This document shows positions 2,603 through 53,774 of a DNA stretch of 64,000 nucleotides, one piece after another (positions within the stretch are counted from its first letter, which is position 1; each line of letters begins with the position of its first letter). The position numbers were made by a program, and so were the translations under genes. The notes beneath the pieces are model-generated. The model did not search any database. It saw only the letters and a list, made by a program, of their open reading frames with translations, and was not told the DNA's origin. This DNA comes from Eremomyces bilateralis CBS 781.70 (Eukaryota): assembly GCA_010015585.1 (NCBI GenBank), contig ML975183.1. One strand, given 5' to 3'.

Positions 2603-2994
2603 GATGTTCGTATTCTTCAACAATCAGGAACACGACGAGTAGTTGGTTGCAAGAATGGCCATCCAACGTCAAACAGCAATACTTCTTTATATACGCACCT
2701 TCAGGGCAGTGATGCCGTACCTCCAGGAAAACTTCGGTGTGCCCTCATAGTTGGTGTCATTTGCTCTAAGATGGCGAATATCGAAAGCACAACCTGAGAA
2801 TGAACGTAGCGTGCAAAGTCTTTCGCTAGTCAGACGCTTGTTTCTACTAACAATTATAGATACTTGATTGTTCATCCACAGAGATACAGCTATTCAATCA
2901 TCTAGTTAGCTAAGCTATCAATTAAGTTAGCGTTGTTAAGTCAACGGTAGGAAGGTACATAATTACTAGAGTTAGGACAAGGGTCTTTCTGTCA

Positions 2995-3049
2995 TAGGGT
3001 GGGTGTAAGAAATAAATGAATGTTTATTTCATAAGTTTTACCCACCCTA
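2995..3049. repeat. Small imperfect hairpin / fold-back
   Basis: tagggtgggt..taa pairs with tttacccacccta; inner gaaataaa pairs with tttatttc. Confidence 0.7.
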
Positions 3050-3148
3050 CTGTCACATAATAAACACGTCTATTTTGTAGGGAATAGGTGCCTATAGCAA
3101 AACAGTGTGAGACCTTATCTCTGAGTGTGAAAAGGGTAGAATTTGAGT

Positions 3149-3180
3149 ACAGTTGATATGGATCAAATGACCCTTGGGGG
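3149..3180. repeat. 32-bp inverted repeat, right copy; begins TA|CAGT like a Tc1/mariner end
   Basis: (t)acagttgatatggatcaaatgacccttggggg is the reverse complement of 982-1013 with 2 mismatches. Confidence 0.85.
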
Positions 3181-3289
3181 AGATCCTCGTTGACAGTGAG
3201 TCACGTGGTCTCCGAGGTCCATCATGTACTATGTAGTAGCACCCCGGCCCTTCTGGCATTATAGAGGGCATTCTACATTCTCATAACAT

Positions 3290-3970
3290 CACCGTATACT
3301 TATCTCAGCAAGCTCAGACGGTATCTTCAGATGCTGCACGTGACTACGGTGTGGCGGTGCAGCCAAGGTATCTTCAGATACCGTCTGAGGTCCTTTTGTA
3401 AGGTTTGTGTGGTGGTGTAGTTGAAGTTTTCAGAGTTCCCAGTCGTTTCAGTCAACCATTTAACTTTCAGTACTCGAAATTAGCTTAAAGTTTATGTAAG
3501 GACATAAGCCTCCTGTAGTCATGTGACGGGGTCATATGACTAGAACATAGAGAATTAGTATATATGGTTTCCAACCCCAATGACCCCTGTTTGGGATCAT
3601 TGTGATCTTTTATGGTCCAATGGTATTAGCGCGGAGGGTTGGTCACGTGTCATTACAGTTTACGCGGGGCTAGGTAAAGGGCAAAAGAACCCGCTCTTTT
3701 ATAGTATATTAAAAAATATATCAAAATAATTCTATAATAAAGGATTAGCATCAGCGGTTTCGAAGGGCTGGTGTAGTTGGACTTTTGGGGCGACCCCGGT
3801 CGCTAATTTTGGTGGAGTTTAGTACGCCGTAGGGGCCAAATCCGCTCTTTTTACCTACGCGCCCACCAAAATGCTGCAGATGGTCCTCAGACGGCATCTG
3901 AAGATGCCTGCACCGCCACAACCATCTTCCAGATCCCGTCTGAGTCCCAACTGAGATAACCGTATACTCG
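3290..3970. mobile_element. MITE-like non-autonomous element with long, diverged, internally palindromic terminal inverted repeats
   Basis: ~3290-3420 and ~3855-3970 are inverted copies sharing gtatac..ttatctcag..ctcagacgg..gtggcggtgcag..atcttcagat.ccgtctgagg. The interior is AT-rich and non-coding. Confidence 0.65.
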
Positions 3971-12344: not shown

Positions 12345-15300
12345 CTACACATCCATCTCTCTCAACGGTACATATGTCCCTTGACTCTCATCCAGACGTT
12401 TCCTCTCCTTGGTCTCCACCAGCCTCATCATCCACCGTTTCACATTGCCCAAAACCTTGCTCACCATCCATCGCCCCTTTCGCACCTCCCCGCCGTCCAA
12501 CCCTGCGAACCCCGCCCCTTCCGGATCCAACACCTCCACACACATCCAGCGCGGCCGCCTCCACCATCGCAACGCCAACGAACTCGCCACCACGCTCACC
12601 GAACTCGCCGCCATCGCTGCCCCCGCTGCCATGGGATGCACATGCAGGCCCCACGGCAGGAAGAGCCCCATCGCGAACGGCAGGCCGACCGCGTTGTACA
12701 TCGTCGCCCAGAGGAGGTTCAGCTTAATGCGCCGGAAGATGGCGCGCGACAGGTGGAGCGACGCCGGGATGGCCAGCAGGTCCACCGTGCGGCTGGCCGA
12801 GGTGTCGCCTTCGAGGTCCAGGCCGTAGAGCGATGATTCGCCGAGGGACGACGAGGAGGCCATGAGGACGATGGATGCTGCCTCCATGGCGATGTCCGCG
12901 CCCTCCGCGAGGGCGATGCCGATGTCGGCGGTCGCGAGGGCGGGCGAGTCGTTGATCCCGTCGCCGACCATGGCGATGACCTGGCGCCGCCCCCGCGCGT
13001 CGCGCTGCTTCTTCATCTCTTGGAGCAGGGCCTGTTTCTTGCTGGGGCTGGCGCTCGCGTGGACGTTGCTGTCGGGGATGCCGACGGCGCGGGCGACGAC
13101 GAGGGCGGGGGCTAGGGTGTCGCCCGTCACGATGGAGCAGGTGACGCCCAATCGCCGGAGTGCGGCAATGGCGGCGCGCGCGGTAGGCTTGAGGGTGTCG
13201 GCGAGGGAAAGGCTGCCGGTGTAGGTGACGTCGAGGGCGGTGTGGATGGTCGAGGTGCCGGCAGATAGGGAACGGGAAAATGCTGGGGTGGTTGGGGTAT
13301 TCGGGACGGTAGAAGTTAGGTCGGCCACGTCCGAGTAGGGGGAATTGGGGCGGGGCGGGAGCGGTTTGTCAGGGAGCGGTTTGTCTCTAGAGGACGCCCA
13401 TACCGGGATGACGACCCCTTGACTTCGGAGGTATGATGCATTGCCGAGATGAACCCGGTGAGAGACCCGACGCCCGTCAATGACCGCTTCGCAGGTTGCG
13501 GAAAGGCCTTTGCCGACGGCGGCTTTGAAGTCGGTGATAGAGCCATCAAAGGCGCTCTCCGGGGACATCCTCAGTCGCTGACGTGCGGCATTCACGATCG
13601 CGCGGGCGATGGGATGCTCGGACCCCGTTTCCGCCAGCCCGACCAAAGTCCACCATTTCTTGGCCGCCGCTTCATCGTGCAGATACTCGTGGATCAAGTC
13701 GTCAGAGCTGACGCTCATCTTGCCGATCGTGAGAGTGCCGGTTTTGTCGAGGACCACATGGGTGATCGCGGTGGCCTTTTCAAGCGCCGCACCACCTTTG
13801 ACCAGAATGCCCTGACTTGCGCCAACTCCGGTCCCAACCATCACGGCGGTCGGCGTTGAAAGGCCAAGGGCACAAGGGCAGGCGATCACAATGACGGAAA
13901 TACAAAGCTTGGCGCACACCATCGTGCGTCCTCCGCTTTGTTCGCTTAAGAAGATATCTGGGGGACTCGATAGGAGGTGGGATAGGACCATCCAAGCCAC
14001 AAAGGTGGCCAGACCCAGGGTTATGATAATCGGTACGAAGTATCCTGCAACCTTGTCCGCGAGCCTTTGAATGGGTGCTCTCGTCGTCTGTGCATCTTGT
14101 ACCAAGCGAACGATCTGGGAGAGCTGGGTATCGCGTCCGGCCCTCGTGACCACAAGGTCCAATCGTCCGGCTCCATTGACGGTACCCGCCATAAGAGCGT
14201 GTCTTCGCCTTTTAAGGATTGGCATCGCTTCGCCGGTGACCATACTCTCATCCACATATGATTCGCCGCGCAGAACAATGCCATCCGCAGGGATTTTATC
14301 CCCCGGACGTAGCACGACGACATCGCCCGACTCTAGAAGCTCGGTCGGGACCATTTGTTCTTCCGCGGAGGATACCGTGGTGGAATTGTCGGTCGCGGCA
14401 TTCATCAGCTTTTCAACGGGAGACATCTTTTCCAGTCCTGAATCGTCTTCCGCGGTTTTGATGGCTGCAATGGGATCGACGTAGATAGTGGCCATACTCG
14501 GAGCCAGGCTCATCAGTCTGCTCAAGGCCTTGCTCGTTTGCCCCTTGGCGCTATTCTCCATGTATCGTCCAAGGGTGATGAAAGTGATGAGCATCGTGCT
14601 CGTGTCGAACACGGTGCTCGGTTTCGTATGGGGAGGGGTGAGGAAACTGACAAGCATCGCTGCAACGCTGAAGAAGAATGCTGCACTGGTCCCAAGGACC
14701 ACCAGAACGTCCATAGTCGGTGCCCGGTGGATCAGGCTCTTATATGCACTCCGGTAAAACCGCCGGCCGATACCAAACTGAACTGGGATCGTAAGAATGA
14801 GGCATACAATATCCCCAAGGTAAATTCCAGGGACAATGCGCACGGAACCAATGTCTAAGAAGGGTATCCACATGGGGAAAATCATCGAGATGAGGAAAAC
14901 AGGAACAGCGAAGCAAAGGGATATACGGAACGCTCTTCGCCATCCTTGGATTTCTTTCGTTTTCGCCAATGACTCCAACTGGGCATTATTGTCTTCACTG
15001 TCGGCCAGTAAAGCATTGAATCCGGTCTTTTCGATCGCCTCAACGATAGCCCTCAAGCCCGTGATGTTGGGAGTATGGTTCACCGTCGCTCGATTCGTGG
15101 CGTAGCTAACGGAGACTGAGTCAACTCCTTTCAGGTCGCCGACGGCCTTTTCTACAACGGAAGCATCATCTTCGCCACTCAATCCAAAGATCTTCAGGCT
15201 AACTGCGGATGATCCGGACCCTGCTGGCCGAGACCATGCCACGGAAGAGACGATCTTGGCATCAAAGCCACAGTCCTCGATGATCGTGGCTATCCGCTCC

Positions 15301-16019
15301 GGTGAAAGTTTTGTATTGTCGTGGACGATGACGGCACGCTCTGCGAGGAGAGAAATGTTGAACTGAAGCATTCCATCCACAGTTTTGAAGCCGCCTTCTA
15401 CAGCCGACGTACAAGCTCCGCAAGTCATGCCTTCGATTGCCACAGTAGTCGATAGAATGCTGTCGCTTTGCTCAGTCCTTCGTGTCCCTTCGACATTGTT
15501 TGTGGGGATAATCGGTTTCGTTCCGATGACTTTCGCTTCGAAGCCCGCATCTTCAATGATCTCGGCGATCTTTTCCGGTGCGAGGAGTTTGGGGTCGTGT
15601 TCCAGCACTGCCCTCTCTGATAATAAGGATATACTGAAGTTCTTCACACCCTCCACGTCCTTGAAAGCACCCTCGATCGCGCTTGTGCATGCACCACAGG
15701 TCATTCCGCCAACTTGAACCGTCGTAATCGCTTCGGGAGGCCCCTGGCTTTCTGTTTTGGATGCCATGGTCGAAATGACCGCAGCGCCAAATCCGCGATC
15801 TTCAATCATGTCCTTTATTGTCTCTGGAGCGATGCGAGCGACGTCATGGACGAGGACAGCTCGCTCCATGACCAAGGAGATGTCGACACTTTGGACGGCG
15901 GGCTCGTTTGCAAAAGCGGACTCCACGGCGGATGTACAGGCACCGCAGGTCATGCCTTGTACTTGCAATGTCGTGGTGGCCATGCGTCTCGAGGGGGAGG
16001 GTGTAGCTGAGGACGCCAT
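12345..16019 (-). CDS. CCC2: Copper-transporting P1B-type ATPase (Ccc2/ATP7-like), intronless
   Basis: Three GMTCGAC HMA domains plus one degenerate; TGEA, CPC, DKTGT, SEHP, GDGINDSP, YN and MAASS motifs. Confidence 0.95.
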   Translation of the reverse strand: MASSATPSPSRRMATTTLQVQGMTCGACTSAVESAFANEPAVQSVDISLVMERAVLVHDVARIAPETIKDMIEDRGFGAAVISTMASKTESQGPPEAITTVQVGGMTCGACTSAIEGAFKDVEGVKNFSISLLSERAVLEHDPKLLAPEKIAEIIEDAGFEAKVIGTKPIIPTNNVEGTRRTEQSDSILSTTVAIEGMTCGACTSAVEGGFKTVDGMLQFNISLLAERAVIVHDNTKLSPERIATIIEDCGFDAKIVSSVAWSRPAGSGSSAVSLKIFGLSGEDDASVVEKAVGDLKGVDSVSVSYATNRATVNHTPNITGLRAIVEAIEKTGFNALLADSEDNNAQLESLAKTKEIQGWRRAFRISLCFAVPVFLISMIFPMWIPFLDIGSVRIVPGIYLGDIVCLILTIPVQFGIGRRFYRSAYKSLIHRAPTMDVLVVLGTSAAFFFSVAAMLVSFLTPPHTKPSTVFDTSTMLITFITLGRYMENSAKGQTSKALSRLMSLAPSMATIYVDPIAAIKTAEDDSGLEKMSPVEKLMNAATDNSTTVSSAEEQMVPTELLESGDVVVLRPGDKIPADGIVLRGESYVDESMVTGEAMPILKRRRHALMAGTVNGAGRLDLVVTRAGRDTQLSQIVRLVQDAQTTRAPIQRLADKVAGYFVPIIITLGLATFVAWMVLSHLLSSPPDIFLSEQSGGRTMVCAKLCISVIVIACPCALGLSTPTAVMVGTGVGASQGILVKGGAALEKATAITHVVLDKTGTLTIGKMSVSSDDLIHEYLHDEAAAKKWWTLVGLAETGSEHPIARAIVNAARQRLRMSPESAFDGSITDFKAAVGKGLSATCEAVIDGRRVSHRVHLGNASYLRSQGVVIPVWASSRDKPLPDKPLPPRPNSPYSDVADLTSTVPNTPTTPAFSRSLSAGTSTIHTALDVTYTGSLSLADTLKPTARAAIAALRRLGVTCSIVTGDTLAPALVVARAVGIPDSNVHASASPSKKQALLQEMKKQRDARGRRQVIAMVGDGINDSPALATADIGIALAEGADIAMEAASIVLMASSSSLGESSLYGLDLEGDTSASRTVDLLAIPASLHLSRAIFRRIKLNLLWATMYNAVGLPFAMGLFLPWGLHVHPMAAGAAMAASSVSVVASSLALRWWRRPRWMCVEVLDPEGAGFAGLDGGEVRKGRWMVSKVLGNVKRWMMRLVETKERKRLDESQGTYVPLREMDV

Positions 16020-17852
16020 GGCTTATCGCAAAGGGAGTGGGAGAACGGGGATGGCGGCGAGCCCGCGCTGGTTATTGAAGGTGGGCCGCCACAGTGAGCT
16101 CGATCGCAAGATCCTAGATATGTACAGGTTCGGAAGGTCTAACAATCGGCGAGACGGGCATTGCTTGCACCAGTTTCTAGGCTTCTAGCAGATAGCCAGA
16201 AGGGATTCAGAGGTACGGAATAGGGTGCGTGGGGTACGGTAGTAAAGTCCGACAGGCTGCCGTTTGATGATTTCGAAGCGGATAGGCTGGAGAAGGGTGG
16301 AAAGGACAAAGAAAGGAGTGATACGGAGGAGACGGAATATGAAAGCACCAAAGAATTCAAGGCCAGCTGGTCAAAGGAAGCAGGCGGGTAAATGTATGTA
16401 TGTACAGGTTTATTAATTGACAGGGACAGGCAATGCTCTGACGATGTAGATACAGGCACTCTATCTCACACCCTACTGAGTCTAACCCGATAGAAGTGAA
16501 GGGCAGCTTTAATTAGGGCGGACAGCGAGCACGTCAGCTGCGACATTTGTGATGGGGAAGTCCTGGTGTTTTTCTTTAATTAGCTCCGATACAGTAATAC
16601 TGGAGTCAGGTGATTTGTCTAGTGAGATTCCTTGACGGATACGGAGGAAACATTGCCAATAACTACCCTGGCTTACGAGTAACTAGAGGGAGAGCCCGGT
16701 ATTAAACTACTATCTTGGTAGTTATACCTAACACACTAAGGATTATGTAATCCTGCTCTCCCTCTTCCTGTCAATTGGCAATGGTGTTCACTGCAGCAAA
16801 CAAATTACAAAATTGCAGAAATCAAGATCCGTTCACCTTATCCTTCTTGCGAAAAACAGGAAGTTGGTTGACGGGTTCCACAAAGCGAAAATTGCTTCCT
16901 GCATGCGCCGGACAGCATTCCGCATTTCCGCCGAAGGTCGCTTCGCCGGCCGACCCTCCCGAAACGCCCGCAACACATCTGCAACACGTATCATCGGACG
17001 CAATGTTATATTACCATGCATACGTAGAACGTTTCTCGCCCTGATGGTATCCTGGGCCTTGGGCCGTCGCTCCGGCCGTCACTGTGCTGACGAGCTGCGT
17101 ATTCACCTCCAAGGAGCATTTCCCACCTATCAGTCACCTTGGTCCATGTCCTACTGGCTTAGGAACCAAATAAGCGTTAGACGGACAGCGATGGAAGGTC
17201 TTCTTCCCTATGAAACCTCCCCACCCGAGATGGACACGGGGTGAGGAGTACACTCAGTACACGAGGCTTGGATGCTTAAGGAACCCCGTGCTCTCGACGT
17301 CCGTTCTAGCCTCCACCGCGCTCGTATTACGTTTCAGGGACGTTTCGAGAGCAAACCCGTCTCAAAGCGAAGAGTTTTTTGTGTGCTTCGGTTTGACATC
17401 ATGCCCGTCTCGAAATGCTCGAAATGCTGGAAATGCAGTTTATACAAAAGTTAGACATATCCCCACATCAGATTCGTTAGATGTTGCCCGAATAATTGTG
17501 GAGGTAGAGCATATCGGACATGTATTGATGATCTTGTTGAATTGCGTCAGAGGATGTATAATCAACATTCAATCTATTAAATAGGCTATATGCAAAGCAA
17601 GAGCAAGGCAAGCACAATTCAAGAACAAGAATAAGCACTTCGATTAGATTCGACGATGTTGGTATGATATAGAGGCGACGCTCCTGTAGTATCTTGCACA
17701 AATATAAGGGGTATATGCCGCGACCACTCAGGGCTACCGAATATGCAACACTTCACCAAACGCTTCGGGCCATGGCGCGAAATCGAGCAACATGGTACCG
17801 TTCCCCTAGATCACCGTGTGGTCATGCATGAACAATTCAGCGCGAGAATGAA

Positions 17853-44524: not shown

Positions 44525-46018
44525 TTACAGATTCTCCCCAAACCCTCCATACACGCCTATCCACCCTTCCTCCTCCCCGTCCTTTTCCTCCGCTGACTCC
44601 GATATCGATGCCCTTTGGTTATCATCGACGCCAGACCCACCCGGTCCGCACTCCATAAATCGCCGTGCCACGCCCCACCCGGCCTCCGTCAGCGGACTGA
44701 ACGCGACCCTCTCCCTCGGCACTGCCATGCCGTACAGGAAGTTCTCGCGCGCCGTCCGTAGCAGCGTCGCGGCGACGGCGCGGTGCCGGAACTGGGGGGA
44801 GGTGTAGAGCAGGAGGACGCCGAGATGGGCGCTGTGGCGTGGTCGGCGGGGATTATGTGCGGGTGACGGCGGCGCGGTTTCGTGGGGGGTTGGGAGGGCG
44901 GCGCGCCGTCGAGGGGGGGGGAGGGACGAGGGGAGGGTCTTGGTCACTGGGAGGTGGATGCAGGAGGTGATGCGTTCGGCGAGGAGGAAGCCGACGATGC
45001 GGCTGGAGGGTAAGTGAAGATACAGGTAGGCTTTGTAGCGGTCTACTTTACTAGGGCCGGCGATTTTCCGCGCGGAATCGCCGTTCAAGTCGAGCTTTTC
45101 TGATCGGTGCGCCACCGGCCGCGGTTCCTTGGGTTGCGTCTTGAGAGGTGGCATACAGGGCCGTTCGAACGTTCCCCACAACCGCTCGTCGTCGATGTGG
45201 ACGGTGCCTAGTTCTCGAGACACGACGTCGAGGACGCGACGGACCGTCCGTCGCATCGTCAGCGTGTCGTTCCTTCGCACGGCGACAATGACGGTCTCTC
45301 CGCCATCCTTGGTCTTGCCATGTGATGTGGCTCCCGGGACAACCCTCCCTCGCCATAAGACCTTTCCATCCGGGTGAGAAGCAATCTCGTCGACGAACGC
45401 CTTGCTGGCTTCCACCCCCACCGTCTCCTCTTGCTGGCCATGTTTTCGGCAGTAACGCTTGTGCAGCGCACTGTCTTCATTCGACGTGTGCACATATTCC
45501 ATCCCACAGAGTTTGCAGAGTCGCGTCACATCTTCTGTGCTCAGCGACAGGGTAAGTTGGGTGAGTTTGTTTCCGGACGTCCTAGACTTCGTCCTTCCTC
45601 GGGCGGGGATTGGATCGTTGGACGACGTTGCCTCATTGGAAACGAACGCGGTGGGAGAAGGTATCGCATTTCGTATTGCGGCCAGCTCGCCCATTTCTTG
45701 CGGGGCGTTTGCGGGCGCGAGGGTCGCAGCTCGGGGCGGAGGACTTGATGGGGGGGACGAGGCGAACTTTCTCCCTGGTGATGACGAGCGACCTAATCCA
45801 GACAATCGAGCTGGCGAGGAACTTCGCGCACCGCTCTCCAAGGTCACCGTTTGGCTGGACACCGACTGTGTGCTGGTTTTCGCAAAGAAGTCATCGATGC
45901 GGCGCCGTTTCGGGGGTGGTACGGGTGGTGAAGGAGACGGGGGTTCGGCAGGGCGAAGAGAGCGGCGATCCTGCCGGCTGTAGGTTCGCAGCGGAGGTTT
46001 GCGTGATTGACTGAACAT
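44525..46018 (-). CDS. ECO1: Cohesin acetyltransferase Eco1/Eso1-like
   Basis: LTQLTLSL (PIP-like), zinc finger CKLCGMEY....ED..LH.RY, VV..ELG, G.LLAERI, F.YG....VAFS..T..G. Confidence 0.88.
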   Translation of the reverse strand: MFSQSRKPPLRTYSRQDRRSLRPAEPPSPSPPVPPPKRRRIDDFFAKTSTQSVSSQTVTLESGARSSSPARLSGLGRSSSPGRKFASSPPSSPPPRAATLAPANAPQEMGELAAIRNAIPSPTAFVSNEATSSNDPIPARGRTKSRTSGNKLTQLTLSLSTEDVTRLCKLCGMEYVHTSNEDSALHKRYCRKHGQQEETVGVEASKAFVDEIASHPDGKVLWRGRVVPGATSHGKTKDGGETVIVAVRRNDTLTMRRTVRRVLDVVSRELGTVHIDDERLWGTFERPCMPPLKTQPKEPRPVAHRSEKLDLNGDSARKIAGPSKVDRYKAYLYLHLPSSRIVGFLLAERITSCIHLPVTKTLPSSLPPPRRRAALPTPHETAPPSPAHNPRRPRHSAHLGVLLLYTSPQFRHRAVAATLLRTARENFLYGMAVPRERVAFSPLTEAGWGVARRFMECGPGGSGVDDNQRASISESAEEKDGEEEGWIGVYGGFGENL

Positions 46019-46171: not shown

Positions 46172-46564
46172 TGGAGCAGTTCGGCAGGTCAGGGGTTTAT
46201 TGGCACGTGACTATGCGTCAATAATTATTTGAATACCACGTGATCAGGACTCTGAACCATCATCGACTCATAGTCATTATCTCGTTATACCAGACGTGCC
46301 AAGCCCTCGATGATTACTAAGGAATAAATTCGCAGTAAGGTTTCAGGGCTTCAGCCCGTCTGGCTACTTTTTGTACAAAAGGTGCAACGATTTGTATGCA
46401 ACAATAAATAAGTAAAAGAGACGACGGCAGGTGGACCGCCAGCATGGCAGGCTTGCCCTTGTGCTATGTCCTCACGATATTTACTTGTCCTATCACTCTC
46501 ACACCTTCGTGGACTCTATGTACACTCAGTCCAATTCCGCACCCACGCTCGAGCCTCTTCACTC

Positions 46565-46810
46565 TTAAGGTGGCACGCGCCCAGTCCCGTAGAGTCGGGT
46601 ACCTGCCACTCCAAGCACCTGTCGTGCGTCGGCGGCATCGATAATGTCTTTGTATGCTCCGAGGGGTGATGCGCCCTTTTCGGGATTCAGAACCGCGTTG
46701 TAGGCTTTGATGGCCTCTTCCAAATCCACATCCTTCTTATCGAGCACGGGTTGAGCACTGGCGCTGGCGCGCAGAGAAGCCAAAAGAGTGAGGATAAGGA
46801 AACACTTCAT
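46565..46810 (-). CDS. Small secreted peptide, 81 aa (signal peptide + KK site); candidate RiPP precursor
   Basis: MKCFLILTLLASLRASASA-QPVLDKK-: hydrophobic leader with AxA cleavage motif and a dibasic site; gtcATG context; divergent from the DUF3328 gene. Confidence 0.72.
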   Translation of the reverse strand: MKCFLILTLLASLRASASAQPVLDKKDVDLEEAIKAYNAVLNPEKGASPLGAYKDIIDAADARQVLGVAGTRLYGTGRVPP

Positions 46811-47321
46811 GACTGTCTGGTCCTTGGGGCAGGTACCGGGGAGTTGACTAGCAAAGCTTATAGGATAGAACTAGAGATCATCGTCAGTATCACCGTCACT
46901 TCCAAAGCATTCATCACTCACGGTTCTGCAACCATTCGACCAGCGCTGCGAGCCACGGAGTCGACCTTCCTATCGTACTATTTCTCTTGAGGCTGTAAAA
47001 AACCTAAATGATTTATAGTCTTCTAATATAATGGACGGCTCAGGCACGTGATTCTAGTTTCAGCTTTATTAGGGACTCACTTAAACTACTGAAAGACGCT
47101 CTTAAAACAGGAACGCTCCCGAATACGGACCTGAAACTCGAGGATTTAATTGGTCCCCTTTGTCTTGTGCGCAATAGTACGTAAAGTATGGCCATCTACT
47201 CTGCGCACGAACCACTGGTGAAAGTCTCTTATAGATTGAGGAACTTCCAGAAGCTTCAAGGCTGTCTTTGGCTTCACTCTAAGGTCACACAGAGAGAAAC
47301 TCACGCTGAATGATTTAACGG

Positions 47322-48374
47322 ATGCCTTCCTACAGGCCGCTCCCCTCTACTGAAGAGGAGAGCAACCATGAAGTGGAGAGCAACCATGAAGTGGAGAAAG
47401 AGGTGGTATTATCGCCGTCTCTGCGAGGGGCGCGATGGAGCGTTCCCTGCAATACCATTCCTCTTGTCGTCTCAGCGTTTATGCTCCTTCTCTCCGTCAT
47501 CAACGTCTTCGTAGCCAAACAACACCACAGAACTGGCAAAGAATGCGCCACAGAGACATCCATCTGGTGTATGCCACTGCCTTCCCTATACCTGAATGCC
47601 CTGGGCGCGCTGACAGTTTCAGCCCCTGTATTGGAAGCAGTCAAATATGAAGATTTTGATTTCCAGAATGACTTTGGACAACCGAGCATTTACCGCGGGC
47701 CGCCAACGAAGGAGCTAGAAGATGAATGGCACAACCTGACATTCAGTGAGTGTTACTGCACGCTGCTCTCCACGTCTCTAGCTTGTCCTAACGAGCCACG
47801 CGCTCAGAACACGCGGTCAAAATCCCCGACTCAAAAGTCCACCTTACAAACCGTCATCCAGTCCGCGACCAGCTCGTCCGCGTGACGCCGGATAATGGGG
47901 GTCCCGGAGCAAAAGGAGAGCTGGGGTATTCGGCGCTGATTGACGTTTTCCACCAGCTGCACTGCCTCGTCTGTCCTCCTCTGCCCTCCGGCATGCACGC
48001 GCTTACCTGAGTCACAGAACCGGATCCGTCAGTACACCTGGCTGCTCACGGGCAACTACCGCAACACCTCTGATCCACTCGACGTGGTCCCTCATGGAAA
48101 TGTCCCCGGGTCGCCGAACTCGCCGGGAGAGGACCCTCGCCCGCCTATTCCGAACGATTTTATGACCACGCCCTTGGCTAACAGGATTCACATAGATCAC
48201 TGCATCGAGACGGTTCGGAAGACGCTCATGTGCCATGCAGATGTGACGCCAATCATGATTATGAAGGATAAAAAGGCGCCACTAAAGAAGCGTGCGGACT
48301 TCAGTGCGAGGCATAGGTGTAGGAACTGGAACAAGATATCGGAGTGGATGGATGAGCAGTGGGCTGTAAGATGA
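47322..48374 (+). CDS. DUF3328 / UstYa-like oxidase (introns ~47569-47622, 47746-47807, 47969-48018)
   Basis: N-terminal TM helix; YRGPPT.EL...W; both HxxHC motifs intact after splicing (VFHQLHCL and HIDHCIE.VR..LMC.AD.TP); H.CRNW..I.EW. Confidence 0.93.
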
Positions 48375-48599
48375 CAGTGGTGAAAGTTTTAGAATGAAAC
48401 AAGAGAAAACTGTGAGCTAAGAGAGCAATTTTCTTTTTCAATTTTAGATTCCTTCTACTGCCGTAGTGTGTGGTGCAGGTTGGCGTGAGAAGTCGCCGCA
48501 TGATTACAGCAACGTCCACTGTTACTCGTCGATGGAGGTAGTGTCTCAAGAACGTCCGCGCATCACCGTACTGTATCATCAAGTTCTACAGCGCCTCGT

Positions 48600-49510
48600 T
48601 GACGTTGCCTACACCACTCGGATTAGTTCCTTTCCTAAAGATCGGTATCATCTGAGAGTAGACCATGTACCGTTTTCATTGAAAGCCTTTCCAGCGCGGT
48701 ATCGGAGCGCATATAAACGTAGAGGTAGCTTAAACCTAGTAAGCTCGCCAACCTTTTTCATTGCATACCGAACGGTCGAGTACTCCACGGCTTATCCGGG
48801 GATATCTCCCATCCCTTTAATATTTTAATAGCTTTGCGAAAAACAGGAACATCGTCTAGGTCAGGTTGTAGCGGTAGTAGGAGTTAGTTCACAACAGAGC
48901 GAACAGAGAGGCCGCTACTACTCACTGGTACCACCGAGCGTATCTCCACCAAATACTATTCGTACGGTACGCCGGAAACAACAGAAGATCATAAATACGC
49001 CTGAGGCCCAACTTTCTAGCCGGAAATACCAACGTCGCGTTCGCCAAGCTACAAACTCATTAATCAAGGCGGTCGAAGAGATCGAGGCGTATAAGGGGTC
49101 CGTTTCAGCCACACAACGCCAGCAAACCAAAAAGAGTCGCTGCCAGGTTAAAACAGGACTTAGCCAGACCGGTGCTTCGTACGTTAGTGAGGCGAACCGC
49201 CATATCGAGGCGCGTGGTCAGAAGGAGCGGGAGGCGGTAATTAGGAAGGCACAGCGGGACTGGCAGCGGGAAAATCAACAGGAAAAACAGCAGAAACCAT
49301 CTCCTATACTCGATCAACCTACTAGTACGGAGGATCTCGGTTTTTATATCGATTTACATCCCGAGTTCTGATATATAGATGATGGTAGTCAAATTGAGGT
49401 TTTGGTGTGGGTTGAGCGTTTGGTGTGGGAGCACCCACAACCGGGGGTTGTGGGGCGGTCATGGGGCACGGATAAGTTATCGTTTAGACGACATTATCGT
49501 TTAGAGTGTA
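48600..49510 (+). mobile_element. pogo/Fot1-like DNA transposon remnant (transposase C-terminus + right TIR + TA)
   Basis: ATG-less frame ~48930-49370 reads PPNTIRTVRRK...KSRCQV...SQTGASYVSEANRHIEAR...GFYID..*, like fungal pogo C-termini. The end has ttatcgtttaga x2 followed by gtg|TA. Left boundary uncertain. Confidence 0.68.
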
Positions 49511-49691: not shown

Positions 49692-51267
49692 TCACACGTG
49701 GAATCCGGGTAAAGGGCTGATGCCGTGATAGAGACACGACGCCATCACCACGGTCCCAGCCGCTCCCGCAATTCCAAAAAGAACACTCTTCGACATCGTC
49801 CTGCCCTGCAACTGTTTCTTCTCGTCCATTGTCAGTTCATCTTCCCACTTCATCGTTCCCCTTCTGCGGACGCGTTCATCCAAAAAGTCCAGCTTCCTCC
49901 CCGGGCGAACCAGTTCGACAAATAAATTGATCATGTACTCTTTTCCGGTAATCCTCGGCATCAACCACTGCAAAGTCGGGTACATGAAGCCGTCATATGC
50001 GTCGAATCGGGTGATATATCCGGTGAGGTCGTGGTGTTTTTTGGCTCGAGGGTAGCGGATTTCCTTGTATTCGTCAAACACCGCTGAAAGTTCTTCCGTG
50101 CTCGGTCTTCTGCCGACCGTTTCGCATCGTTTGATCAACCGATTCAGTCCGTTAGCCAAGACGACGACCGATTCGATTCCCTGGTTCCCACCGTACCCTA
50201 GGTTGGGTGTCATTTTGTGTGCTGAATCCCCTGCAAGAACAATACGACCGAAGTGCCACTGATTGAGAACCCCCTCTTCTATCGGGCCAAGATGGTACTG
50301 GATGCGATTCTCCCAGATATCCCTCCACATAACGGTGCCATTGATGGGATGACTCAGGTACTTCTCTCCGACGGCCACTGCGTCGGACTCGCTGTATCGA
50401 TGGCAATTCTGACAGTTGAAAGACTTCCCCAGCTTTTCGAAGAACAACCAGAAGATACGGTCTTCGCAAGAGAACAATAACCAGTTGCAATGCTTGTCGT
50501 TGCAGTCGATTAGCGATGATTTTTGGAGGCCGGGAACCATTTTGCTGACGCCATACAGACATCGATATTCGCTCGTGAACGCTAGGGGTTGTCAGACAAT
50601 TAAGGAGAAGTTAGATGAACGAGATGCCAACGTACACATCTTCTCTTGGGCTGGAATCGCCCCAGGCCGTACCCCGTTGGCATGCTTCCACATAAATTCC
50701 CTCACCTGGCTATGGACTCCATCGGTCCCAATAACGATATCTCCTGCTTCCATACTTCCATCCTTAAGAAATACCTTCACACCCTTGTCGTCTTGTTCTA
50801 TCCGTTCAAGTGCCATTCCTGTCACAAACTTCGATTTATTTGGGAGCTTGTCATAGACACCCCGCAAGAATTCCGATCGCCTAAATATCGTGAACCCGTA
50901 CCCAGCTCTAACGGCAATCAGCAGTGTCCAAGTAAAGCAGACCGTACACTAACCGCTGAGTCAATTTCTCAAAATTATTCGATGCATTAGCCACGGGAGA
51001 GCCATCGGGATTGAAATTGTAAGTCCATTTGAACTCAGACCCGAGCTTCTCGATGTCTTCGAGCATCCCAAGTTGGTCCACGACGCGAAAGTTCTGTGGC
51101 CAGAGCCCGAAACCCGCTCCTCGTTCCTCAACTGGCTCCAGCGCCCTTTCAAGCAGGACATAGTCAATACCAGCGGCTTCCAACGCGTGCGCCATGAACA
51201 GGCCTGCGATACCCCCGCCAACGATGATCGCACGGAATGGTCTGCTATCTTTCTCTGAAGCAGCCAT
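49692..51267 (-). CDS. FAD-dependent monooxygenase (group A, FAD_binding_3) with C-terminal hydrophobic anchor; introns 50908-50953, 50582-50635
   Basis: IIVGGGIAGL, IGTDGVHSQVR, RIVLAGDSAHKMTPNLGYGGNQGIES. Confidence 0.92.
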
Positions 51268-53774
51268 GACTGGAACCACGCGCGCGGATATCAACACTCT
51301 AAAGCAAAGAGGTAAAACCAGGGGAAATGCCCTCCACCGTTCCGTGATACAAAAGCCTTCGAACCCTCCTGCAACAGTCGCCGTTTGCTCATATCTGTTT
51401 TTGCGGACAAGGTGCCACAGTGGCATCGAATAGCCTCGCTGTGGTAATGGGAGGGGCCTTAATACAGATAATGGTAATGGTACGAATAATAGTGTCTAGA
51501 ATCGCCTCTTCTGCCGGTGAGAATCCCTTTAGCCCTTCTTGCTGCAACTGAAACCTTTCGAATTTATGGACTTCCTGTTGAATATGAAGGTTTCTTAGTA
51601 TGCCTTGCACTACATCGGCTATTCTTCGTTCACCGACATCGTGTCTCCATTTGGCTGGTAGCTGGATCCCGGAGGCGCAGGTTTGGGGACGATCTGCATT
51701 AATCTAACAGGGTAAGAATCCATCAGAGATGGTATTTATTGGGCGACAAGCATCCCCTGGGTCCTTTTAATATTTGCTAGAAAGCAACGAGAGCAATATC
51801 GTGGAGAAGGCGACACTGGTAGCGACCTATATTCCTCTCACACGAAAGCCTGTATCAATCATCGATTAGATAGCTACATCGCGTCGCGTTCCCCTAACTA
51901 CGTACTATTCTTTCTGTGCAACCTGGTACAGCTGTTCTGGATACACGCATTATGCATGTAAAATTATCAAATCGAAGCTGGACAGTCTTCAGAGCAACAG
52001 TGCGAGTGCAGCTTGGGGGGCCCGGCCAGTATCCGCTCTCGTGATCAGCTGCATATATGCCAACTTAGGAAACACTGAGGGGGTAAGGATTGCGCACTTG
52101 ACTTTGTGAGAGACTCCTGCATACAGCATAATGTTGGGTACCTAGGTTGAATGGAGGAATTGGTGGACCGGGCGTCAGGCGTCAACGGTCAAGAAGAGGA
52201 GTGAAAATTGTCTTTCATTCTTTTCGACGTCTTGGCTCCTGAGCTCGCCGCGCTTCGTGCTTCGTATTGATGTCCTGTCCTAAAAGTAATTGAATCCGTT
52301 CAATGAGGCAGATCTTAGGCATTGACATCTACGGGCTTAAGAACGAAGCAGCAGTCGTGTGCACAATCGGCTTGCCAGTGCGCAATATAGCCGTATTCCG
52401 TATTGCTGCTTATACTTTCACGACCAGCAGCTTCGGCTTCACACCTTATCCATCCTTGTCGGCGATGTTACTGTCCCAGCCGTCACCGCCAGCCAGAAGA
52501 TAGTCGAGGGAGATCCGCTCGTTGGCTATATCTGAGCTCTGTGGCGACGGGATTCATTCCGCACCGTGCTCGTTTCCATCGTTCAACTCCAATATTGGAG
52601 TAGAATCACGCGACTCTGCCCTGTTGGTAAGGGCCTCGGACGGTCATCGCCTTTGCCTGGCATTCGGTCAATCCGCGGATGAGTCTCTTCTTATTGTATT
52701 GAAAGCGCTAGTACTTCGGACTCGGGCACTGCCAACAGCTAGAAAATCGCCTTCTATTTCACGCAACCGGAAAGCCCAGCATTTGACGGAAGCACAACAA
52801 CAAAACCAAGTAGTATCTCCGTGTCAGCTATATGCAGTGGAGAACCTTCTAAAATCGGGTTGTTGCAAGGTGGGTGTGACGGCGAGTACGCATTGGATAT
52901 TCCGTATAGGCAGTATTGCATCTATTCGTACAACCGTAACAGATGGACATAGAAATGTAAATGTACTTGGTCTAGTCCTTCAAAAGCTATCGAGTATGGA
53001 AGCTGGACTCAGTATTTGATCGTTGGAGACTTGTATGGTTGGTTGGCTTGCGATCTTCTCATGAAATGACAGTTCCCTCCAGGGAGCTGTTGTACAAGCG
53101 AGGCACCTGCTGACTCCGAAAGGACGATTTAATGCATGAAAGTAATCCATAAGATACATCATACACTTTCTAGTCAAGCGAAGAAGTATATATGTCGACC
53201 AGCGCTCCAGATCAGTGATGGGATTTTATTACCGAGAGCCGGAATTCGGCCTTGCTGCATATCCATATGGCCCGCCGAAATACGGTAGATGTCAGCGTCG
53301 ATTGTCCAATTCAAAGCAAGAGAAAACACTCCGTAAGTTAACCATTAATTAATTACCGGCTTATATAAGTTAGTGTCTCTTCCGATAACGGAACCAATAC
53401 TGGATGATGCTGTTGGCTAAGTTGGAGACATTTGGGTAATACCACAAGTCATATCTTATTTTACCATGTTTCACGTGTACGCCTCCCCGGCCTCTCTCCT
53501 TAGATAGGCCCAATACGGTATTGGTGCGTCATAAGCTAGCAGACGATTGTCCTTTTGTCCAAGGCTCCCACCATGGTGAAATACAGGTTATTACCGTGAA
53601 CAATTGGACTCATACCGACGGGCTCTCCTGCACAGCCTCTTTCTTGTGCTCTTGGACAATGGGGAATGAACGACATTTGCGCGTCTACACCTGCATGAAA
53701 CTCCATCATGGCATGAAGCAGTGTTGATAGAGTCCTGCCTGGTACTTCAAGTTACCTGCATCGTAAGTACCAAC

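Follow-up and report, generated by a model that had tools for sequence, protein, structure and literature searches.

A secreted-peptide gene and a UstYa/DUF3328 oxidase gene arranged head to head in Eremomyces bilateralis: a possible minimal peptide-plus-oxidase pair

The window analysed here is a stretch of 64,000 nucleotides from contig ML975183.1 of Eremomyces bilateralis CBS 781.70 (GenBank assembly GCA_010015585.1). The original prediction for this DNA, made from its letters alone, had pointed to an 81-aa open reading frame (ORF) with a signal peptide, a KK site and three tyrosines, sharing a divergent intergenic region of about 510 bp with an intact four-exon DUF3328 gene that carries both HxxHC motifs; it had proposed that the peptide is the substrate of the oxidase. 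Both genes are present as described. The peptide gene (ORF 46565-46810), whose product we call P0001, lies on the minus strand, the UstYa/DUF3328 gene lies on the plus strand, and the two are oriented head to head across a spacer of 511 bp (46811-47321). The features of the locus are collected in Table 1.

By eye, the N-terminus of P0001 consists of MK, a hydrophobic core of 11 residues, A-S-A and then Q20; the signal peptide is thus predicted by inspection. One helix in the AlphaFold2 model, at residues 4-15, falls inside this predicted signal peptide. The protein has a KK pair at residues 25-26, tyrosines at residues 37, 53 and 74, and no cysteine. Confidence in its fold is low (0.47 in ESM Atlas; in AlphaFold2, two helices and a mean predicted local distance difference test score, pLDDT, of 50), which is more in keeping with a flexible peptide than with a folded mini-protein. 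A cross-linked mini-protein had been offered as one variant of the original prediction; folding lends it no support, and P0001 has no cysteine. A Pfam search with P0001 gave zero matches at E-values up to 0.1, and at this ORF the GC content of third codon positions (GC3) fails to tell coding from non-coding frames.

The locus is present in three public runs, two of DNA (X1 and X2) and a third (X3), which were compared over positions 46200-48600. X3 is labelled RNA only as a guess; we treated it as cDNA because four introns are removed from it exactly. One X3 contig of 2617 nt spans both genes. It is collinear with 46444-46870, hence with the whole 81-aa ORF, and it skips exactly 47569-47622, 47746-47807 and 47969-48017 (all GT..AG), which are the three predicted introns of the UstYa gene. 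The fourth skip falls in the 5' leader of the peptide mRNA and marks an intron that lies 60 nt before the ATG of P0001. None of the four skips is found in X1 or X2. Both genes are therefore expressed in one sample and the UstYa gene model is correct; the 81-codon ORF is intronless and its mRNA has a spliced 5' leader. Lack of transcription of the small ORF had been set beforehand as a ground for giving up the proposal, and the ORF proved to be transcribed. The X3 contig is unstranded, has a single mean depth, and gives neither start sites nor relative levels; a contig across two genes is also not the same as a single transcript. All depths are contig means, and expression was not ranked by them.

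An in-frame N-terminal extension of P0001 from the ATG at 46935 was considered and rejected. Once the leader is spliced, this ATG is out of frame and opens an upstream ORF of 8 codons, which precedes the main ORF only if transcription begins upstream of 46935. Strain differences inside the P0001 ORF are limited to one, at 46733, which is synonymous. Between the runs and the window, the UstYa gene has three differences (two synonymous, one Val-to-Ile), and non-coding sequence has nine.

The oxidase is an ordinary member of PF11807, intact and expressed. Its exons 2, 3 and 4 score 27.6, 26.7 and 67.6 bits, all above the curated cut-off of 25, and cover positions 52-90, 95-137 and 157-219 of the 220 in the profile. 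The two HxxHC motifs read HQLHC and HIDHC. They form the HxxHC(x)nHxxHC copper-site motif of the DUF3328 enzymes, which are copper oxidases with a lumen-facing catalytic domain (PMC12435403). A polar N-terminus of 45 residues precedes the predicted membrane helix, and by analogy with the cyclochlorotine hydroxylase CctR the catalytic domain would be lumenal. Cys249 and Cys278 sit C-terminal to the second HxxHC motif; in CctR, the C-terminal cysteines that form the dimer disulfides are C190 and C213 (PMC12435403). A search with exon 4 returned one protein, from Sticta canariensis, with 46% identity. A perfect 18-nt tandem duplication at 47358-47393 doubles a six-residue segment in the N-terminal cytosolic tail of the enzyme.

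An exhaustive phmmer search with P0001 over 1.84 billion representatives found one further protein, P0003 (E 7.9e-4, 44% identity). This protein of 100 aa, encoded on a Logan contig of 1164 nt, has a signal peptide followed by two copies of a 38-residue unit (35 of the 38 residues identical) joined by RR. P0001 aligns to either copy, and with the second copy alone, which contains no signal peptide, the identity is 38% over 52 residues. The small ORF is thus conserved at the protein level, with 38-44% identity to P0003, and P0001 is a real, conserved gene. P0001 thus belongs to a very rare family, in which it has one unit while the other known member, P0003, is laid out like a Kex2-processed repeat protein. 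A word-indexed search with P0001 recovered itself only, a profile of P0001 and P0003 found no further relatives, ESM Atlas held no match to P0001 of at least 0.8, and none of the 186 pattern stretches matched in a metagenome scan with the peptide profile was confirmed. Pfam matches to P0003 were all below the curated cut-offs.

A metagenome scan with the C-terminal exon of the UstYa gene gave two loci, L001 and L002, from 103 pattern matches. L001 contains a textbook dikaritin-type cluster. Its precursor gene, on the minus strand, and a UstYa gene are oriented head to head at a distance of 744 bp, and a Zn2Cys6 regulator and a second UstYa gene come next. The precursor (2770-3325, minus strand) has a signal-peptide exon, one intron, a divergent first unit and then five 20-residue units, four of which end in KR and one in QR. 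The 20-residue repeats have no aromatic residues, and the only tyrosines of the precursor, two in number, lie in a non-repeated, KR-flanked tail. This placement raises the question of which part of the precursor the oxidases act on.

The tail of the L001 precursor matches the unit of P0001 and P0003. In tblastn, P0003 and the tail share 11 of 19 residues (E 0.003), and shuffled sequences reached the score of P0003 against the tail in 2 of 2000 trials. A profile of three units, searched against the 2430 six-frame ORFs of the window, L001 and L002, gave the tail as its best non-self match (14.4 bits, E 0.0042), the next match scoring 8.0 bits. The common pattern is A-Y, four residues, (D/A)-A-A-D, three residues and V-L-G. 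The tyrosine, Tyr53 in P0001, is kept in all four copies, namely P0001, both repeats of P0003 and the L001 tail.

L002 contains, at about 250-640, a UstYa homologue that is 50% identical to the C-terminal exon in the window; it has an in-frame stop in the first HxxHC motif, and the second His is replaced by N. This homologue is therefore either a pseudogene or the product of a sequencing error. L002 is uninformative on linkage because it is cut upstream of the gene and has the stop inside the first motif.

A TATAAA-like box near 47010 in the spacer is oriented toward the peptide gene. Domains were scanned in 38 ORFs of the window: 29 from the 60 ORFs of at least 150 aa, and 9 translated stretches around the pair (exon pieces or ORFs, some shorter). 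As anticipated, an ECO1-type gene lies on one side of the pair (Acetyltransf_13 and zf-C2H2_3 on 44525-46018, minus strand) and a transposon remnant on the other, and the 38 ORFs contain no domain of a nonribosomal peptide synthetase (NRPS) or polyketide synthase (PKS). The remnant is a DUF3435 fragment on the minus strand, matched by PF11917 at 48648-48791 (E 8.2e-8) and in the first 32 residues of the ORF 48301-48585 (E 7.3e-4).

The DUF3435 fragment sits just past the UstYa stop codon, convergent with UstYa. Judging by the way the X3 contig ends loosely at 48598, the fragment may be transcribed from the minus strand and spliced, a skip being possible near 48609-48670; this splice is a reading of 30 loose letters only. 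In the 3' flank of the peptide gene, 46276-46412 has about 7x the surrounding depth in the DNA runs X1 and X2, and each of the three runs has contigs that stop there in loose ends unrelated to one another. The stretch resembles a dispersed repeat present in many copies. Only one gene of the major facilitator superfamily (MFS) was found in the window, 44 kb from the pair at 1110-2345. A gene for a copper-transporting P-type ATPase, with four HMA and E1-E2 ATPase domains, occupies 12345-16022 on the minus strand, 31 kb from the UstYa gene, and its lying near a gene for a copper-dependent enzyme is probably a coincidence.

Table 1. Features of the peptide and oxidase genes and of their surroundings, in window coordinates.
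Feature	Position	Strand	Basis
P0001 coding sequence, 81 aa, stop codon included	46565..46810	-	ATG-to-stop ORF, collinear RNA contig (X3 record 20) and homologue P0003
Predicted signal peptide of P0001, residues 1-19, cut after A-S-A	46754..46810	-	n/h/c regions by inspection
Conserved unit of P0001, residues 24-67, D-K-K-D to V-L-G, including Tyr53 and the AAD motif	46610..46741	-	Aligned to both P0003 repeats; C-terminal 19 residues match L001 tail
Intron of 51 nt in the 5' leader of the peptide mRNA	46871..46921	-	X3 skip, CT..AC on plus strand = GT..AG on minus strand
Upstream ORF of 8 codons, starts 46935, spans the leader intron junction	46935-46909 region	-	Out of frame with main ORF
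Divergent spacer, 511 bp	46811..47321	.	RNA contig covers all except leader intron 46871-46921
UstYa/DUF3328 gene, 295 aa, four exons (47322-47568, 47623-47745, 47808-47968, 48018-48374)	47322..48374	+	Pfam PF11807 and RNA-confirmed introns
Predicted single membrane helix of UstYa, residues 46-64	47457..47513	+	Best 19-residue Kyte-Doolittle window, mean 2.5
First HxxHC motif, HQLHC, residues 172-176	47951..47965	+	Translation
Second HxxHC motif, HIDHC, residues 235-239	48189..48203	+	Translation
ECO1/ESCO-type acetyltransferase gene, housekeeping flank	44525..46018	-	Pfam Acetyltransf_13 6e-15, zf-C2H2_3 1.9e-10
DUF3435 (Crypton-like recombinase) fragment, flank, ~80 of 418 profile positions	48490..48791	-	Pfam PF11917
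FAD-dependent monooxygenase gene, 1.3 kb downstream of UstYa	49692..51495	-	FAD_binding_3

We tentatively read the two genes as a dikaritin-type pair of peptide and oxidase, minimal in size and divergently transcribed, and give this reading somewhat less than an even chance; the original prediction is in this respect supported in part. The peptide would enter the endoplasmic reticulum via its signal peptide and lose residues 1-19. In the secretory pathway it would meet the lumen-facing catalytic domain of the membrane-anchored, copper-dependent UstYa, which would oxidise it, most likely at or near Tyr53 of A-Y...A-A-D...V-L-G, to give an ether cross-link or a C-H hydroxylation. The acidic, Cys-free product of 40-60 residues would then be secreted. 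The layout of P0003, with two units and an RR, supports this reading, as does the motif shared with the precursor of a UstYa cluster (L001). In its favour, too, are the adjacency of the two genes, their expression in one sample, the intact enzyme, the conservation of the peptide and of Tyr53, and the synonymous nature of the one strain difference in the ORF. The published background fits it as well, since DUF3328 genes are strongly enriched beside the genes of repeat precursors: of 9399 surveyed, 31.8% have a gene for a Kex2-processed repeat protein no more than 15 genes away, with a peak in the count at the immediate neighbour (PMC7329392). Kex2 fragments that carry Tyr and are not repeated have also been noted in a precursor encoded beside a DUF3328 gene (PMC7329392, Fig. 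9 legend).

Measured against what defines a dikaritin precursor, P0001 gives a mixed result. Its signal peptide, predicted by inspection, places it in the layout shared by P0003 and the L001 precursor, and a DUF3328 gene, looked for within a few genes, is its immediate divergent neighbour at 511 bp. Tandem repeats are lacking, a single unit being present, and there are no flanking KR or RR sites, the sole dibasic pair being KK 25-26; the original prediction had been right that P0001 lacks KR-delimited core repeats. We do not file P0001 as a dikaritin precursor because these two defining tests failed, and it may work like one despite failing both. Since P0001 carries one long unit without KR or RR, repeat-based mining would miss it.

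The missing repeats and KR/RR sites weigh against the reading as a pair, and so do several other points. The KK pair, for which a role as a processing site had been suggested, is indeed present, but it aligns with a single K in P0003, and because it is not conserved there it is a poor candidate for a Kex2 site. The peptide family has only two members, and the window provides the one genomic context in which its co-occurrence with UstYa is seen. The match to the L001 tail spans just 19 residues, the score of P0001 itself against the tail was reached by 32 of 2000 shuffles (weak alone), and the V-L-G before a dibasic site could partly be a convergent Kex2-site context. Identity between the UstYa of the window and either L001 enzyme is only 35-38%, so it is not an orthologue of them. 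Among the ORFs scanned across 41850-62155, no tyrosinase, methyltransferase, transporter, peptidase, regulator or second UstYa was found near the pair, and a dikaritin cluster in the five-gene sense (PMC12048977) was not found there; the flanks of the pair are a housekeeping gene and a transposon fragment. A contig such as that of X3, spanning both genes, is no evidence of a common regulator or of similar levels of expression. Finally, orphan UstYa genes are common: some two thirds of DUF3328 genes lack a repeat precursor in their vicinity (PMC7329392), and certain DUF3328 enzymes have non-ribosomal peptides as substrates (PMC12435403).

The two genes may instead be neighbours by chance, an ordinary unmodified small secreted peptide, related to a Kex2-processed repeat protein but with a single unit, beside an orphan UstYa whose substrate lies elsewhere or does not exist. 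We hold this to be about as likely as the minimal pair. It keeps this standing because the repeats and KR sites are missing, the accessory genes are absent, the two-member family provides no second context, and some two thirds of DUF3328 genes lack a neighbour of this kind. In the published survey, 68% of DUF3328 genes lie beyond 15 genes of a repeat precursor and 78% of Kex2-processed repeat proteins have no DUF3328 neighbour (PMC7329392). P0001 has neither a KR/RR site nor a repeat, no other cluster genes were found, and the flanks are housekeeping or transposon-derived. The pair was also picked while scanning for oddities, and by our estimate, which is uncomputed, a small secreted neighbour among several UstYa genes is not improbable. 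A chance neighbourhood accounts less readily for the head-to-head layout with its fully transcribed 511-bp spacer, for the recurrence of the unit motif in the precursor tail of a cluster with two UstYa genes (L001), and for the peak of DUF3328 counts at the gene adjoining the precursor (PMC7329392).

A second alternative, that UstYa acts with the downstream FAD-dependent monooxygenase on a small molecule or non-ribosomal product and that the peptide is uninvolved, seems improbable to us. Both halves of the monooxygenase gene (49692-51495) match FAD_binding_3, and DUF3328 enzymes are known to hydroxylate and halogenate non-ribosomal peptides such as cyclochlorotine (PMC12435403). However, no backbone enzyme (NRPS, PKS or terpene synthase) is found among the 38 ORFs scanned, and UstYa and the monooxygenase are arranged tail to tail with the transposon fragment between them. 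Less probable still is that the 81-codon ORF is a chance ORF in a non-coding or antisense transcript: it is short, GC3 gives no frame separation and the RNA contig is unstranded, but a minus-strand GT..AG intron lies 60 nt upstream of its ATG, a homologue was found at E 7.9e-4 against 1.84 billion proteins (38% identity over 52 residues for the mature parts alone), and the sole strain difference in the ORF is synonymous.

Among known systems, asperipin-2a of Aspergillus flavus is made from the precursor AprA, which has many short KR-delimited core repeats, and its cluster also contains a regulator and a transporter. In contrast, the window peptide has one unit of ~44 residues, no KR or RR, and no accessory genes. 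The two systems are alike in that the precursor is secreted and contains tyrosine, and asperipin-2a too is a very small system, with a single DUF3328 enzyme, AprY (PMC7329392), a copper- and oxygen-dependent cyclase (PMC12435403). In the ustiloxin and phomopsin clusters (UstA with UstYa and UstYb; PhomA with five DUF3328 genes), a signal-peptide precursor likewise lies beside HxxHC genes of the UstYa family, and the tyrosine side chain is a cross-link partner (PMC7329392). These clusters have multi-copy cores of 4-6 residues, a tyrosinase, a methyltransferase and several DUF3328 genes (definition quoted in PMC12048977), whereas none of their accessory genes was found in the ORFs scanned within 10 kb of the pair in the window.

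The L001 locus shares with the window the head-to-head arrangement of precursor and UstYa (744 bp in L001, 511 bp in the window) and, in its KR-flanked tail, the pattern A-Y...A-A-D...V-L-G; it differs in its Tyr-free 20-residue repeats ending in KR or QR (five plus the divergent first unit), its two oxidases and its regulator. Unmodified Kex2-processed repeat proteins of the pheromone and alpha-factor type resemble the window peptide in their signal peptide, in the release of units in the secretory pathway and in the layout seen in P0003. A DUF3328 neighbour is lacking for 100% of 227 alpha-factor-like and 98.6% of 216 pheromone-like precursors (PMC7329392), whereas the window peptide adjoins a DUF3328 gene and has a single unit only. 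CctR has a disordered N-terminus, one membrane helix and HxxHC(x)nHxxHC (PMC12435403), and the position of its helix matches that in the UstYa of the window. In contrast to the window, where the ORFs scanned have no NRPS domain, CctR sits in an NRPS cluster.

A further proposal, which we consider rather unlikely, is that the pair stands for a class of ribosomal peptides that depend on UstYa and lack repeats, in which the substrate is one unit of ~40 residues and the conserved A-Y...A-A-D...V-L-G serves for recognition or as the site of the cross-link. For lichen clusters that lack repeats, a precursor with a single core has been suggested, and not shown (PMC12048977). In the DUF3328, UstYa and dikaritin literature that was searched (supplements excluded, save Table S2 of PMC7329392), no report of a repeat-free UstYa substrate was found. 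If the proposal is true, non-repeated tails such as the Tyr-bearing one of L001 would also be substrates of UstYa enzymes, and the roughly two thirds of DUF3328 genes for which no repeat precursor is detectable would become approachable for the first time.

The mining of fungal genomes for ribosomal peptides depends on KR-delimited repeats. The locus described here is a compact, expressed test case of two genes, and it offers a sequence motif with which more may be found. Should the peptide prove to be modified by the oxidase, long, non-repeated peptides would be added to the substrates known for this family of copper enzymes.

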